Positions 17,715 through 31,242 of a stretch of 32,000 bases of DNA are shown piece after piece. Position 1 is the first letter of the stretch; the number at the start of each line of letters is the position of its first letter. Position numbers and translations under genes: made by a program. Under the pieces are notes generated by a model. It was not told the DNA's origin. It was given only the letters and a program-made list of their open reading frames with translations, and searched no databases. Source of the DNA: SAR324 cluster bacterium (GTDB taxonomy: Bacteria; SAR324; NAC60-12); assembly GCA_015232315.1 (NCBI GenBank), contig JADFZZ010000003.1:112194-144193 (forward strand). Reading direction: 5' to 3'.

Positions 17715-18077
17715 ATGGCATTGATCATTGAAATTACACAGCAGACAGATCCGAATGTTCCAATTTTACATTTAGTTGGAAAATTTTTAGAAGAAGATAT
17801 CAAACACTTCAGAAATGAGATTCAGGTTTTTCTTGACGACAAAACTATAGCGGGAATTGTACTGGACTACTCTGATCTGCAATACATTGATTCAAGTGGC
17901 GTTGGAACCATGATTTCGATCTATCATCAACTGTCCAGGCGGGGTGCCAGATTGGCATTATTCGGCTTGAATAAAGATCTGCTGGAAATGTTTGAGATGG
18001 TTTTGATGCTGGACAAAATTTTAGCCATCTTTTCCACAGAACAGGACGCGATCAATTATATTGCTACCGGAAAGTAG
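17715..18077 (+). CDS. STAS-domain protein (anti-sigma-factor antagonist / SpoIIAA-like)
   Basis: 120 aa. The conserved segment is DYSDLQYIDSSGVGTMISIYHQLSRRGARLALFGLNKDLLEMFEMV, which contains the phosphorylatable DSSG serine motif. SD AAGAGG lies upstream of the ATG. Confidence 0.85.
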   Translation: MALIIEITQQTDPNVPILHLVGKFLEEDIKHFRNEIQVFLDDKTIAGIVLDYSDLQYIDSSGVGTMISIYHQLSRRGARLALFGLNKDLLEMFEMVLMLDKILAIFSTEQDAINYIATGK

Positions 18078-18143
18078 TCAGATCCATACATGAATGGAAA
18101 TGCCTGATGAATTTCGTTTCAACAAACTTCCTACAGATCCTTT

Positions 18144-20171
18144 ATGGACAACCAACAGAGCACAACTCATCTGTTTGATGAAAATGAGCAAATTCTGGAT
18201 TATTTAAAAAATTCCCGTTTGTTCACCCATTGGCCCAAAGACTTGCTGCTTCAGTTGGTTCCCCTCTCTGAATTCAGGAAATATTCCCCGCAAAGTACCA
18301 TTTTACAGGAAGGCGCCCCCAATGACCGTGTATATTTTCTGATTCGCGGGGAAGTGGATGTGGTTGCCGGGAATGAACACATTTTGTCCCTGAAACGTAA
18401 AGGGGATATCTTTGGTGAAATGAGCATCATTAGTCATAAAACTTGTGCGGCAACAGTCATTGCCCACACGATGGTAGACACCTTCAGCATCAAAGCCAAT
18501 AATATTGGAGACATCACGGATTTTGATGCTTCAATCCTGCAAAACACCTTGTATCGGCTATTTGCGATGATCCTGACCGATAAATTGTCACTGACTACTG
18601 AAAAAGCCAAAAAGTTTGAGGAAACCAACAGACTACTGCACCGCAGTAACCTGCAACTAACAGAGGAAATTCAGGAACGCCAGCATGCTGAGAAACAACT
18701 GGAACAAAGCAATCAGCATCTTCACGAGGAAATTGATCGAAGAAAAAACACAGAACAACAATTAAGGATTGCCAAACACGAAGCCGAATCAGCTAATAGA
18801 AGTAAATCAATGTTTCTTGCCAACATGAGTCATGAAATCCGGACTCCGCTGAACACGATCACAGGCTTCAGTCAGTTGCTTCTGAACCAGGCTGAAAAGT
18901 ATCATCTCTCCGCTGAAGCCACTCAATATCTGGATGGCATCACACAAAGCGGTCATCATTTATCAGAACTGATCGGAAACATTCTGGATCTTTCAAAAAT
19001 TGAATCCGGAAAAATAGACATCGTGCTGGAATCAATCAATCTCCGACTCTTGATCCAGGGTATTTTTCACATCAACAAAGCACAGGCCCTAAAGAAAAAT
19101 ATCCAGTTGACTTATCATGTTGATCCAGCCCTGCCTGACTCCATCTATTCTGATCGCAACAAACTCCAGCAGATTTTAATGAATTTCACAGTCAACGCCA
19201 TTAAATTCACATCAGAAGGTAAATCTGTCAAAATCAACGCCCTCAGAGAACAACAGAACCTTCTGCTGAAGGTCATTGATGAAGGCATTGGCATTGCTCC
19301 GGAATTCCATTCGAAAATTTTTGAACCCTTTGAACAGGTCGATAATACCCAAAGCCGGAATTATAGTGGTACAGGACTTGGACTGACCATTGTGAAACAA
19401 CTTGTGGACATGCTGCAAGGAGAGATTGGTGTCAAAAGTGAGCTGGGCAAAGGTTCGGAGTTTTATGTCAAACTACCACTGAAAGAAGGTCACTCCAATC
19501 AGGACATTGCCTCAGATGAGAACTTACCACTAAATTTTCAGTTTGCGCCAGACAGTAAAATTCTGGTGGTAGAAGATAATCCACCCACTCGACAAATGAT
19601 GAACGCGTATTTTGAATCAAAGGGACTCCGGGCCATCATTGTAAAAAACGCATATGAATTTTTCCAGAAAATCGAAGAATTTGAACCTGAAGTGATTCTG
19701 ATGGATGTTCATATGCCCGGAATGGATGGCATCTCAGCAATCAGGAAACTGAAAGCATCACACAAACATGCTCATATTCCTGTCTTGGTACTTTCCGCAG
19801 ATGTTTTCAAGGAACAGCAAGATCAAGCGATTGCAGCCGGTGCTGCTGGATTTCTCGGGAAACCTTTACGAATGGACGTGTTGTTGCGGATGCTGTCAAA
19901 AATTTTAAGACAACAATCCGTGCCAATTCCCCTATCTCAAGCCAACTTGTTAACACCTGAGCTAAGAGGCCAGATCTTGGAGGAGTTTAAAAAATTGTCA
20001 TTGATGCCATTTTTTGATGAAGCTGAATTGATAGATCAACTCAACAAAATCAATAATATATGCCCGACTGAGCCTGCATGGTCTGCAACACTGGATAAAA
20101 TCATGAACAGCATCATTCACGGAAATGAACCTGAATTTCAGGCATTACTCAAGGAGTGGATGAATGATTAA
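18144..20171 (+). CDS. Hybrid sensor histidine kinase: cNMP-binding-like domain, coiled coil, HisKA, HATPase_c, REC, uncharacterised C-terminal ~100 aa
   Basis: The cNMP-like beta-barrel reads [12 protein letters not shown]...[21 protein letters not shown]. The H-box is [10 protein letters not shown] (His codon 18831-18833). Also present are an N-box (NAIKFT), G1 (DEGIGI) and G2 (GTGLGLTIV). REC motifs are ILVVEDN...[12 protein letters not shown]...LSAD...GKP. Confidence 0.9.
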
Positions 20172-22671
20172 TATTCTGATTGTGGATGATGACAGATTCT
20201 TTATACAGAATCTTCGGCAGCAGATTGCGGAATGTGGCTACAGTTCCAAATACGCGGTTAATCCCTCGTTTGTACTTCCCCTGCTGGAAAAAGAGACGTT
20301 TGATCTTATATTGATGGATATCAATATGCCAGAGATGGACGGCATCATGCTTCTCAAACAACTCAAGTCCCATCCCGTGTATAAAAGAATTCCCGTGATC
20401 ATGCTGACAATGGAAACGGATGACCAGTCCCTGGTGACCTGTTTGAATAACGGGGCGATGGATTATATAAACAAACCTGTTAACAAACTGGCACTGGAAG
20501 CACGAATCAATGCCGCACTACGCACCATAGAATACGAAACATGGCTGGAAAAAAAATATCATGAGGAATGGAAGCAACGTATTGATTTAACACGCAAGCT
20601 TCAGAAAAACGAAAAACTGATTCATCAGTGGGAGATTCTCCCCGGGGATATTCAGTCTTCATTGCAACAGACTCTGGATAATTTTGAAAACAATGCCGAT
20701 TTCGTAGATAAAGAACTCATTGCTGTCCTGATCCAGATGACCGGGCAATATGGCGACAATCTGTCCAATTTTTTAAAATTAAGCAGAAAACGGGATGCCC
20801 AGACCATTGAACAACGAAATGCCCGTGTTGCGCTTTTAAAGAATATTCCGTTGTTTCAATCGCTCAACGTATTTGATCTGGCCATTCTGTCTGAAAGAAT
20901 GGAAGCCCTTGACGCAACAGAAGATATGGAACTTCTGGTTCAGAATGCTCCTGCGGGGTGGGTCTATTTTATTGGTTCAGGAATAGCGGAAATCCTGGTC
21001 AATGGAGAAATAGTGGCACATCGAAAAGCGGGGGATTCCATTGGCGAAATGTCCTGTTTGCGATCAGAACCCAACGCTTCGGCCACTGTCCGTATGGTTG
21101 ATGCCGGCACTGTTTTCCGAATTGAACGAACAGCGTTCATGGAAGTGATAAACCGACTTCCACCATTATGGAAACGTGTCTTCATGGAGGCAACCAATCG
21201 ACTCAATCAGTTGTCACATCGTCTCAGTGAACTTTCACAGCATACCGCACAGGGGATTGTAAAAATTGATCCTCAAGGCAAAATCACGTCTGACTTTTCC
21301 TCTCCATGTATCAAGGTATTTGGTACCAAGTCACTGATCGGAAAAAATCTGGAGGATTTAATGTTTCCGGAAGATCCCATTGTGCAGGAAGGATGGCGGC
21401 AGGCATACCCTCTGTTTTTCGAAAATGCCCTGATGGATTATGAGATGCTGGCTGAAATGATGCCTCGTGAAACAGTGATTGTTCATGAGGGTGTCCCCAG
21501 GGAATACAAACTTTCCTATTATCCATGCCGAAACGCGGAAAAAATCCTCACCGGGATTGATATTGAAATTGAAGACATCACGGAAGAACGAAAATTATCC
21601 CGGGAAACGGAAGCTTTGAAAAGAGAGCAGTATATTGTGGAAAAAATCTATAACGATCCTGATTCCTACATGCAGATGCTACTTCTGATGGAAGACAACC
21701 TGACCATGCTGCGTCAATTTTCTGAAAAACTGACCTCAAACGCTATGGCACAACTCAAGGAGGACACGGTTGAACTCATGCGTCTGCTTCACACACTCAA
21801 AGGTGTCAGCAGTCTGTTTGGTCTGGATCGTGCCAAGGCGATCACGCACCAACTTGAAGAATTTCTTCGCTCCTCCATCAACTCCCCGAGCGTTCTGAAA
21901 ACCCAGTTGATCCAGGGTACTGTGGACTTGACCGCACAATGCGATTATGCACGGGAGTTGCTTGAAAAAATTGACCCTGATTTACGCAAACGATTGATAG
22001 GCGTTGTGTTTTCCAATGACGATTTCGCTGACTTGAAAAAATCCCTTCAGTCACGAGACTATGGACGTGTTGAAACACTGGTATTGAGTGCAGAAAAAGT
22101 CTCCCTGAAAAAACTGGCTCAACACTGGCCCGCTGAAATCCGTAAGCTGGAAACAGCCTTAGGAAAACAGGTTAAATTGATCATTGAAGGCGAAAATGTC
22201 CAGGTATCCCGAACACTGTTCCAGAAACTGGATGGACCGTTGGTGCATCTCCTGAGAAACTGCATGGATCATGGCCTTGAGACCGTGGAAGAACGACTTG
22301 AAAAAGGCAAGGATGAATGGGGACGTCTCACCTTGAAAATCAGTATGGTGAATGAATGGGTCACGCTGGAAATATCTGACGATGGCAACGGCATCAATTA
22401 TGAACGGATCCTGCAAAAAGCACAGAACCATCCTTCGCTGGACCAGACCGTGGTGCAACAACTGATTGACGAGAACACTGTGTGGAAAATTCTGTTTCTT
22501 CCGGGATTCAGCACAACGGAACAAGTCACTGATTTATCCGGTAGAGGGGTTGGGTTGGATGTCGTACAGAACACGATCAACGAACTGCATGGCAACATGC
22601 AGGTTGAAACCACCCCTGATCAGGGAACCAGTTTTATCCTGCGGTTTCCGCTGGCGCAGGACACTGCGTAA
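20164..22671 (+). CDS. Multidomain kinase: REC, cNMP-binding-like, PAS-like, Hpt, CheA-type HATPase (no CheW-like P5 domain)
   Basis: The start overlaps the upstream stop by 8 nt (ATGATTAA). REC motifs are ILIVDDD...[13 protein letters not shown]...INKP. The cNMP-like domain reads [20 protein letters not shown]. The Hpt motif is [13 protein letters not shown] (His codon 21790-21792). The CheA-like P4 region reads [47 protein letters not shown] and [24 protein letters not shown]. The ORF ends right after the ATPase domain. Confidence 0.9.
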
Positions 22672-29883: not shown

Positions 29884-30339
29884 ATGAAACGACTCAGTGT
29901 TATTGATGCGGCATTTCTGGAAATCGAAACTCATGAAAGCCCCATGCATGTTGCGAATTTAATGGTAATGACCATTCCTGAAACACGGGAACAGGAATCT
30001 TTTTTAAGGGAATTGCTGGATTCATTTTGTGACTTAGCAAAATCTTCCGCACCTTTCAATCGGAAACTGGCCTCACCTCATTTACTTTCCGGTTGGCCGG
30101 CATGGATTGAGGACGATGGACTGGATTTGACGTTTCATATCCGTCGCTCCGCGGTGCCCTTGCCCCATGGCATTCCTGATTGGTCTAAAAACCGATTTTT
30201 CTCTGGGAAATACCTCTTTGCATGGACTTTTATATTGTGTTATCCGTCTTACATGCTACTTACCCAGATCTTTTGTGGCATAGACCGTTATCGGTTCCTT
30301 TCAAAAGTAGTTGACATTGAAGGGCAAACTGTAAACTAA
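29884..30339 (+). pseudogene. Truncated wax-ester synthase / diacylglycerol acyltransferase (WS/DGAT): N-terminal ~96 aa only
   Basis: MKRLSVIDAAFLEIETHESPMHVANLMVMTIP...APFNRKLASP...WIEDDGLDLTFHIRRSAVPLPHG matches the WS/DGAT N-terminus. The family pattern is L.P.D..FL..E....PMHVG.L......, PF..KL and FDL..H.R...LP.PG. Homology is lost near nt 30172, before the catalytic HHxxxDG motif. Full-length enzymes are about 450-480 aa. A +1 frame reading DLLWHRPLS (about 30270-30296) may be a further decayed piece. Confidence 0.65.
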
Positions 30340-30468: not shown

Positions 30469-31242
30469 ATGAAAATTACCTTTCTTGGTGTGGGTTCCGC
30501 ATTCTCAAAGATCAACGCGAACAGCAATCTTTTGGTAGAAAGTGGCAATATCAATATGTTGGTGGACTGTGGTCACACAGCCTCGGCATCCCTGATTCAA
30601 CACGGGAGATCTATTGCTGATATTTCCAATATTTTTATCACTCATTTGCATGCGGATCATATTGGTGGACTGGAAGAATTTGCGTTCATGACCCGTCTGG
30701 TGTTTAAAAAAAGTGTCCAGGTGATGGGAACCTCCTCGATCCTTCATCGACTTTGGAATCACAGTCTCAAAGGTGGTCTGGAATTTATTGAACTCACGCC
30801 TGATGACGTGACGCCCCAGGTGATGGAAGATTTTTTTACCCCTCGTTCATTGCCACATAGTCAATGGATCAAACTGGATGATTCCTCTCCTCTGGAAATG
30901 TACCTTCATCCAACGAATCATGTGAAACTGATGGAAAGTTATGCGGTGGAACTCCGTGAGGGTGACAAACATGTTCTTTATACCTCAGACACTCGCTTCG
31001 ATCGTCCCCTGCTGGAAAAATGCATAGATCGCTGCACCTATATTTTTCATGACTGTCAGTTGTTTGACATGGGAGGCAATAATGATCTCGGTGTTCACAC
31101 GTCCTACAATCAGTTACGGTCTCTTCCAGGCGACATGCGTAAAAAAATGTGGCTTTATCATTATGGGGATGAACCACGCCCAGAAGCCGAAAATGAAGGG
31201 TTTGCGGGTTTTGTTTCACAGCTACAGACGTTTGACTTGTAG
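30469..31242 (+). CDS. MBL-fold metallo-hydrolase
   Basis: 257 aa. The N-terminal beta-strand is KITFLGVGSAF, followed by LVDCGH and the canonical HxHxDH motif ITHLHADHIGGL. Later His and Asp ligands are also present (YTSDT, FHDCQ, LYHYG). Confidence 0.85.
   Translation: MKITFLGVGSAFSKINANSNLLVESGNINMLVDCGHTASASLIQHGRSIADISNIFITHLHADHIGGLEEFAFMTRLVFKKSVQVMGTSSILHRLWNHSLKGGLEFIELTPDDVTPQVMEDFFTPRSLPHSQWIKLDDSSPLEMYLHPTNHVKLMESYAVELREGDKHVLYTSDTRFDRPLLEKCIDRCTYIFHDCQLFDMGGNNDLGVHTSYNQLRSLPGDMRKKMWLYHYGDEPRPEAENEGFAGFVSQLQTFDL

Follow-up and report, generated by a model that had tools for sequence, protein, structure and literature searches.

A 32,000-nucleotide stretch of the genome of a SAR324 cluster bacterium (hereafter the window), which spans 112194-144193 of contig C33, encodes, at positions 17715-22671, a STAS-domain protein and two cytoplasmic kinases, kinase 1 (K1) and kinase 2 (K2). 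Each kinase carries a cyclic-nucleotide-binding (CNB) domain whose phosphate-binding cassette (PBC) lacks the arginine that corresponds to Arg209 of PKA. As judged from sequence comparisons, this absence is a real and conserved trait of the families and of the lineage to which the two domains belong, and not a property of this locus. Our best explanation, to which we give about an even chance when it is taken as a whole, is that both domains are functional small-molecule sensors with a rebuilt phosphate subsite, and that the STAS-K1-K2 genes form a lineage-specific, co-translated three-gene signaling operon of a SAR324-type genome with a very large signaling repertoire. The observation that underlay the original prediction, which had been made from the sequence without database searches, is confirmed, its interpretation is supported in part, and the absence of the arginine is probably functional.

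Absence of the phosphate-binding arginine in both cassettes

The segment is filled by three open reading frames (ORFs) on the same strand, and the CNB domains of the two kinases lie at the following positions.

18204-18518, + strand: CNB-fold sensor domain of K1, of the Asn/Ser/Cys type described below, with the PBC at 18411-18458 (PDB alignments, profile column)
20842-21240, + strand: CNB-fold domain of K2 with its C-helix and with the PBC at 21040-21090, one residue longer than that of PKA (PDB alignments)

Both domains exceeded the PF00027 gathering score of 27.5, with 53.2 bits for K1 and 40.4 bits for K2, and in the AlphaFold2 (AF2) models both CNB folds were intact, with long helices leading from them to the kinase cores. 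For the alignment of the cassettes, a CNB profile was built from the host genome's own 50 CNB domains; when it was applied to 97 CNB domains of other phyla, 66 had Arg in the Arg column, which validated the column as the true Arg209 position. Neither kinase has Arg there, so the by-eye reading of two Arg-less cassettes held up against the profile. In K1, Cys101, whose codon (18444-18446) had been named correctly, stands opposite the PBC Arg in phmmer alignments to the PfPKG and PKA structures, and the genome-built profile agrees. The positions of Gly169 and Ala202 of PKA are taken by Asn60 (18321-18323) and Ser94 (18423-18425), respectively. In K2, Ala264 (20953-20955) and Ser297 correspond to Gly169 and Ala202, and the residue at the Arg position depends on the template. 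The Asn originally proposed (Asn304, codon 21073-21075) is placed there with some templates, but Ala305 with others, including PycTIR, and no Arg is found either way.

Compared with the canonical CNB domains of PKA-R, PKG and CAP (PF00027), K1 and K2 share the fold, the Pfam family, the Gly-Glu of the PBC (G91/E92 in K1 and G294/E295 in K2) and its Ala-[Ser/Thr]-Val end (A103/T104 and A307/T308), and these Gly-Glu and Ala-Thr residues are invariant or nearly so in the respective families. They differ in that neither has an equivalent of the PBC Arg209 (Cys101 in K1, Asn304 or Ala305 in K2) or of Gly169 in the beta2-beta3 loop (Asn60 in K1, Ala264 in K2).

Arginine-less cassettes in the host genome and in the two families

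The host genome (5.25 Mb, 95% complete) has Arg in that column in only 15 of its 50 CNB domains, and three further domains, whose PBC is one residue longer, carry Arg one position later. The remaining domains have Ser (7), Ala (5), Cys (5), Lys (4), Thr (3), Asn (3), Tyr (3), Val (2) or a residue seen once. Two neighboring Arg-less CNB domains are the expected state in this genome (about 0.4-0.5), and because Arg-less domains are the majority, no local explanation is needed for the adjacent pair. The special status implied by describing the arginine as missing twice therefore falls away, as Arg-less PBCs prevail in the genome and define two whole families. The counts given for these families were drawn from related sequences and do not represent independent events.

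When the N-terminal 220 residues of K1 were searched against 1.84 billion proteins, 95 cluster representatives (50% identity) were obtained at E<=1e-30. The Arg column was occupied by Cys in 40 of the 48 closer database homologs and in 9/9 of the closest genome loci, within the motif FGEMS-[IV]-IS-x-K-x-C. Among the top 150 representatives, 82 had Cys and most others had Ala, Ser, Thr, Val or Asn, and Arg was present only in distant multi-CNB proteins. The K1-type module occurs in kinases of the HisKA, HWE and HisKA_3 classes, which may or may not also contain PAS domains and receivers, and is found in up to 16 copies per genome in large-genome relatives and in more than 10 copies per genome in several SAR324 relatives. 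In a 28-sequence alignment of the family, the CNB domain and the helix that follows it were the best-conserved part across differing kinase output classes; invariant residues include G57, N60, G69, R85, G87, D88, F90, G91, E92, M93, S94, I96 and S97, and Lys99 is nearly invariant.

The K2 family, which combines an optional receiver (REC), a helical region, CNB and PAS domains, a histidine phosphotransfer (Hpt) domain and a CheA P4-type ATP-binding domain, was detected in 24 of 88 genomes of the phylum; the host genome has six paralogs. All 18 aligned members had an Arg-less PBC of the form GEMSCLRGE-x-x-ASATV, and Arg300 of K2 was conserved in most of the family.

Arg209 is known to co-evolve with Gly169 of the beta2-beta3 loop, which packs on the guanidinium group (Kannan et al., 2007, PMC2246266), and our covariation counts reproduce and extend this relationship. 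Arg-bearing domains mostly have Gly in the Gly169 column, and Asn, which is invariant there in the K1 family, co-occurred with Arg just once in about 160 cases. In the Ala202 column, two residues past the PBC Glu, Ser was found in 131 of 164 non-Arg domains versus 10 of 74 Arg domains. The resulting three-position signature, Asn/Ser/Cys-or-small at Gly169/Ala202/Arg209, defines a coherent bacterial CNB subfamily, whose members occur in fusions with kinases, with PP2C phosphatases and with RsbW-like kinases. The HisK CNB family of Kannan et al. resembles K1 and K2 in having the CNB domain N-terminal to a histidine kinase, whereas its consensus has Arg (GELSLLTGGPRSATVRA, PMC2246266) where K1 shows the Asn/Ser/Cys type and K2 the Ala/Ser type with a longer PBC. 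In the literature we found no description of the Asn/Ser/Cys CNB subfamily, of CNB-PAS-Hpt-P4 kinases or of SAR324 CNB kinases. A separate CNB clade with Val or Ile at the PBC Arg position and the motif FGEMSL-[IL]-SGEP-[VI] was also observed in metagenome-assembled genomes (MAGs) of Desulfobulbaceae, Desulfocapsa and Desulfobacterales (L059-L061, L066, L080, L096, L112, L114).

Candidate ligands of the CNB domains

The strong constraint on these domains, and the fact that the CNB domain and its helix are the best-conserved part of the K1 family, argue for functional sensors rather than decayed domains. Because the Gly-Glu ribose contact and the C-terminus of the PBC are kept in both, the ligand is most likely of the nucleotide type. 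In the rebuilt subsite that we propose, phosphate or another anion would be held by neutral hydrogen-bond donors instead of the guanidinium group. In the K1 type, Gly169/Ala202/Arg209 are replaced with Asn/Ser/Cys (or another small residue), and in the K2 type an Ala/Ser pair is combined with a PBC that is one residue longer and ends in A-S-A-T-V. Lys99 in K1 and Arg300 in K2 may serve as charge partners of the subsite.

Several points weigh against our explanation. Lys99 and Arg300 are off the structural position of Arg209, and loss of the PBC Arg in PKA lowers the affinity for cyclic AMP (cAMP), about ten-fold in the case of R209K (cited in PMC2246266), so that binding of a cyclic nucleoside monophosphate (cNMP) is not assured. 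Among the genomes examined, the STAS-K1-K2 gene order is specific to the host genome; domain searches of the window proteins revealed no RsbW-type Ser kinase, PP2C or REC-PP2C within the window; and STAS genes beside CNB sensors are recurrent, yet far from universal.

It is possible, though considerably less probable than our explanation, that the domains sense something other than a cyclic nucleotide, with the Cys of K1 acting as a thiol redox or electrophile switch or as a metal or heme ligand, and K2 binding an unrelated small molecule. CNB folds with non-canonical PBCs are known to bind heme, chlorophenolacetate and nucleosides (PMC2246266, PMC10959531), and most of the K1 clade retains the Cys. 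However, the same family exchanges Cys freely with Ala, Ser, Thr and Val, which points to a requirement for a small residue rather than a reactive thiol and weakens an obligatory reactive-cysteine reading of K1. The original prediction had proposed a different ligand, as in CooA- or CprK-type sensors, or a non-binding regulatory fold; a different ligand or an altered fold is a fair reading in that the loss is conserved and constrained, but the analogy with CooA and CprK is weak. CooA has a shortened PBC loop with His/Cys heme ligands, whereas the PBCs of K1 and K2 are full length or longer, retain the nucleotide-contact motifs Gly-Glu and Ala-Thr-Val, and contain no His or Cys-Pro heme motif.

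Two known systems are close to the domains in other respects. PKA-R of trypanosomatids binds nucleosides but not cAMP, having lost the Arg and gained, at the Ala202 position, a Glu that repels phosphate (PMC10959531). It shares with K1 and K2 the change of the PBC Arg to an uncharged residue with Gly-Glu kept, and its structures (6flo, 6h4g and 6ftf) were among the PDB matches. The Glu is absent from both kinases, which have Ser at this position (Ser94 in K1 and Ser297 in K2), and a nucleoside pocket of the trypanosomatid type was ruled out on this ground. The second is PycTIR, a cUMP-binding Pycsar effector, whose CNB domain came out as the closest single-domain match in the PDB to that of K2 (E 1.5e-10) and has the same one-residue-longer PBC. 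PycTIR differs in keeping the PBC Arg (K-R-S-A-T-V versus N-A-S-A-T-V in K2), and K2 lacks the TIR effector.

We regard it as distinctly improbable that the CNB domains are ligand-free structural or regulatory modules, engaged in dimerization, an intrinsic ligand or a protein contact, while the receivers and the PAS domain are the real inputs. The CNB-homology domains of KCNH channels are a model for such modules. Arg209 and Gly169, the residues most diagnostic of cNMP binding, are both absent, and K2 has alternative input domains (REC and PAS). K1, however, has no other sensor domain, and the pocket residues of the PBC (Gly-Glu-Met-Ser and Ala-Thr-Val) are almost invariant over about 100 divergent clusters with several output types, which is hard to explain for an empty pocket. 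As for the source of a ligand, the original prediction had considered that locally made cAMP gates the kinases, which sit between cyclase genes. This model is weak: with 45 class III cyclase domains in the genome, a cyclase neighbor is unremarkable.

Architecture and catalytic cores of the two kinases

The ORFs and the domain anatomy given in the original prediction were borne out by ORF and Pfam searches. The features of K1 are as follows.

18144-20171, + strand: K1, a cytoplasmic hybrid histidine kinase of 675 aa with the order CNB - long helix - HisKA - HATPase - REC - 91-aa tail (Pfam, AF2)
18825-18851, + strand: H-box of K1 with the phospho-acceptor His230 (18831-18833), which is invariant in the 28-sequence K1-family alignment
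19560-19895, + strand: receiver of K1 with Asp521 (19704-19706) and Lys573 (PF00072, E 1e-22)
19896-20168, + strand: C-terminal tail of K1, four short helices with no Hpt signature (AF2, with a predicted local distance difference test score, pLDDT, of 44-70)

Pfam placed cNMP_binding at residues 45-122, HisKA at 221-289, HATPase_c at 337-447 and REC at 473-584 of K1. The protein has the marks of a HisKA-type hybrid kinase, namely the H-box His, the N, G1 and G2 boxes, and a receiver with D521 and K573, and in the family alignment N347, N351, D379, G381, G383 and G409-G413 are invariant together with H230. K1 is predicted to be an ordinary, catalytically complete hybrid histidine kinase. In its AF2 model (mean pLDDT 79.6), one continuous helix (residues 131-248) links the CNB domain to the dimerization and histidine phosphotransfer (DHp) domain; CNB occupancy would be relayed down this helix to the kinase core, leading to phosphorylation of His230 and Asp521. 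As originally described, K1 is a HisKA-HATPase-REC protein without Hpt. An Hpt domain in the 91-aa tail was ruled out, since the tail gave no Pfam match at E<=10 and contains only short low-confidence helices. Only two other kinases have tails to which it is weakly similar.

K2 is built around a different core.

20164-22671, + strand: K2, 835 aa, with the order REC - helical region - CNB - PAS - Hpt - short linker - CheA-P4-type HATPase (Pfam, NCBIfam, AF2, Foldseek)
20164-20523, + strand: N-terminal receiver of K2 with Asp52 (20317-20319) (PF00072, E 1.4e-27)
21253-21576, + strand: PAS-like domain of K2 (PAS_9, E 8.9e-4, under the Pfam cut-off; PAS-like strand/helix alternation in AF2, pLDDT 84-91)
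21658-21966, + strand: Hpt four-helix bundle of K2, CheA P1-like, with the phospho-acceptor His543 in LLHTLKG (21790-21792) (PF01627, E 1.4e-10)
21967-22095, + strand: linker between Hpt and P4 of K2, three short helices (residues 605-643), a remnant of the CheA P3 hairpin (AF2)
22096-22656, + strand: CheA-P4-type HATPase of K2 with intact N box (Asn699), G1 (DDGNGI), F box and G2 (GRGVGLD) (NCBIfam, Foldseek)

In K2, Pfam assigned REC to residues 4-115, cNMP_binding to 257-331, Hpt to 513-570 and HATPase_c to 693-831, with a weak PAS match. The AF2 model (mean pLDDT 83.8) shows, in order, REC, a long helix and the helical region, CNB, the C-helix, PAS, Hpt (helices at 499-601), the short helices and P4. 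Within the K2 family, H543, L545, K546 and G547 of the Hpt domain and the N, G1, F and G2 boxes are invariant. The core matches CheA in P4 only: NCBIfam CheA models aligned at residues 638-830, and Foldseek superposed the domain on Thermotoga maritima CheA P4 with a template modeling (TM) score of 0.82-0.87 at 35-39% identity. No match to P5, the CheW-like domain (PF01584), was obtained and the protein ends 4 residues past P4, so the originally proposed CheA-type core without P5 was confirmed. The accompanying statement that no P3 was evident was correct in that PF02895 gave no match, but a stub is recognizable. It comprises only about the last 15-20 residues of P3 helix 2, where the alignment to T. 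maritima CheA starts, and three short helices take the place of the long hairpin.

K2 thus shares with CheA a P1-type Hpt domain with H-T-L-K-G and the P4 ATP-binding domain, and differs in having no P2, no P5 and only a stub of P3, and in receiving its input from fused REC, CNB and PAS domains rather than from receptor arrays. By these motifs, K2 is a CheA-core kinase that is self-sufficient, with Hpt and P4 present and with P5 and the greater part of P3 stripped away. Signal transmission is proposed to start with CNB occupancy, which would be passed down the long helix following the CNB domain to the core, where P4 would phosphorylate His543 of its own Hpt domain, from which the phosphoryl group may move to its own Asp52 or to other receivers. 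The maintenance of a CheA Hpt-P4 core without P5 and with a P3 stub bears on how much CheA autophosphorylation needs.

Gene organization and the possibility of a dedicated relay

Among named organisms, the proteins encoded here are closest, with 41-45% identity, to those of MAGs labeled 'SAR324 cluster bacterium' and 'Deltaproteobacteria bacterium TL4'. Translational coupling of the two kinase genes is suggested by their junction.

20151-20171, + strand: K1/K2 junction with an AAGGAG Shine-Dalgarno motif, the K2 ATG at 20164 and the K1 stop codon at 20169-20171 (direct sequence reading)

The Shine-Dalgarno motif lies 7 nt 5' of the K2 ATG, and the K1 stop and K2 start overlap by 8 nt (ATGATTAA), as had been noted originally. 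A site scan between STAS, K1 and K2 detected no promoter- or terminator-like site exceeding shuffled background.

The original prediction had suggested a possible closed His-Asp-His-Asp circuit in which K1 and K2 form a dedicated relay, from K1 His230 to K1 Asp521, then to K2 His543 and finally to K2 Asp52. The overlap with its good Shine-Dalgarno motif and the lack of an Hpt domain in K1, which that of K2 would supply, are in line with such a relay, as is the presence of a K2-type kinase beside a HisKA-HATPase-REC hybrid on contig C23 of the host genome and in a second genome (G071). However, because K2 has an intact P4 beside its Hpt domain, K1 is not needed to load His543. Moreover, the hybrids paired with K2-type genes elsewhere carry a K2-type sensor and not a K1-type one, and neighboring kinase genes are common in a 5.25-Mb genome with about 130 histidine kinases. 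Synteny gave no comparative support either: in other genomes, K2 homologs stand alone in 5 of 6 loci (G048, the 'TL4' MAG, G044, G041, G084 and G081), and both a K2-type neighbor gene and an upstream STAS gene are absent from all 21 K1-type loci. We therefore consider the closed relay unlikely, and a conserved three-gene STAS-K1-K2 system was rejected on the basis of the same loci. One K1-type sub-clade has a REC protein of about 300 aa encoded upstream.

At the C23 locus (G000:C23:34356-40319, - strand), the helical-CNB-PAS module is present on an Hpt-P4 core in one gene and on a HisKA-HATPase-REC core in the adjacent gene. A single-domain receiver is encoded beside this kinase pair, and the same pairing occurs in the second genome at G071:C159 (L023).

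The signaling load of the host genome is extreme for its size, with 50 CNB, 45 class III cyclase and 56 PP2C domains, about 186 receivers and about 132 HisKA-type kinases. It also encodes 37-53 CheA-P4-like ATP-binding domains, mostly without a recognizable CheW domain.

The STAS protein and a partner-switch output

The first gene of the putative operon encodes a protein of the anti-sigma-antagonist type.

17715-18077, + strand: STAS-domain protein, 120 aa, anti-sigma-antagonist type (PF01740, E 1.9e-19, 69.8 bits)

Its score against TIGR00377 (53.4 bits) is just below the cut-off of 53.45. The candidate phospho-serine, read from the translation, is Ser61 (codon 17895-17897) within IDSSGVG, and the protein thus combines the STAS fold with a putatively phosphorylatable Ser in a D-S-S-G motif, as SpoIIAA/RsbV-type proteins do. 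The host genome encodes 15 STAS domains, 56 PP2C domains, of which 23 are fused to REC and 2 to CNB, and about 17 RsbW-like domains, and has one REC-PP2C/STAS/RsbW cluster elsewhere.

STAS genes were also found beside CNB proteins at other loci. In two genomes of one genus, which belongs to another family of the phylum, a STAS gene comes immediately after the gene for a K1-type CNB-HisKA-HATPase-REC kinase. On contig C5 of the host genome, a gene for a double-CNB protein precedes a STAS gene. In G044 (contig C12, 4693-6695), the gene for a 396-aa CNB-PP2C phosphatase lies between two STAS genes, and this locus is predicted to be a compact module for partner switching in which a CNB domain is the driver. 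Because STAS genes recur beside K1-type kinases and CNB-PP2C, and because the genome encodes 23 REC-PP2C proteins, a partner switch, which the original prediction had suggested from the upstream STAS gene, is plausible and, as our best guess, the most likely output. Phosphotransfer from K1 or K2 to one of the 23 REC-PP2C phosphatases would then act on the co-encoded STAS protein at Ser61.

A scheme in which a hybrid kinase signals through an Hpt domain and a REC-PP2C/RsbW protein to a STAS protein operates in HptB-HsbR-HsbA of Pseudomonas aeruginosa and SypE-SypA of Vibrio fischeri. The present locus is similar in that it encodes a hybrid kinase together with an Hpt domain and a STAS protein that has a DSSG serine, and in that REC-PP2C proteins are plentiful in the genome, which includes one REC-PP2C/STAS/RsbW cluster. 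It differs in that the REC-PP2C/RsbW component is outside this operon and the Hpt domain is part of a second kinase.

PP2C domains were also found at the ends of nine paralogous giant proteins of about 1740-2015 aa in the host genome (G000 contigs C87, C30 with two copies, C66, C88, C5, C68, C40 and C2). Their first approximately 1500 residues were matched by none of the domain probes used.

Other genes in the window

At 30469-31242 (+ strand), a 257-aa protein with a metallo-beta-lactamase fold scored 128 bits with Anti-Pycsar Apyc1 (PF23023), for which the cut-off is 50. This protein, encoded 8 kb from the kinases in the same cyclase-rich neighborhood, is probably a phosphodiesterase of cyclic nucleotides that is chromosomal. 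A Pycsar or defense reading of the kinases, prompted by this gene and the PycTIR match, looks unlikely, as K2 has no such effector domain, PycTIR keeps the Arg and no defense context was seen. Separately, the 151-aa ORF at 29884-30339 (+ strand) aligns with the wax-ester-synthase/DGAT catalytic profile over no more than positions 1-91 of 263 and is thus a truncated gene.

Significance

To our knowledge, non-canonical CNB domains have been recognized since 2007, and ligands have been found for few of them (heme, chlorophenolacetate, 2-oxoglutarate and nucleosides). Non-canonical PBCs are thus already known, and what appears to be new here is the Asn/Ser/Cys subfamily signature and the CNB-PAS-Hpt-P4 kinases. 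Taken by itself, this locus is a modest result, two ordinary-looking family members behind a STAS gene.

A bolder possibility, which we consider rather unlikely, is that the K1- and K2-type CNB modules read a messenger other than cAMP or cyclic GMP, or that K1 is gated by redox chemistry at the PBC Cys, and that the signal is coupled via K1, the Hpt domain of K2 and a REC-PP2C to the STAS switch. If another messenger is indeed read, about two-thirds of the approximately 50 CNB domains of these SAR324 genomes would respond to a second, unrecognized signal beside the 45 class III cyclases.

The identity of the ligand would be a test of whether the arginine is dispensable for binding a cyclic phosphate, and it would explain a large share of the signaling capacity of an abundant, mostly uncultured marine lineage.

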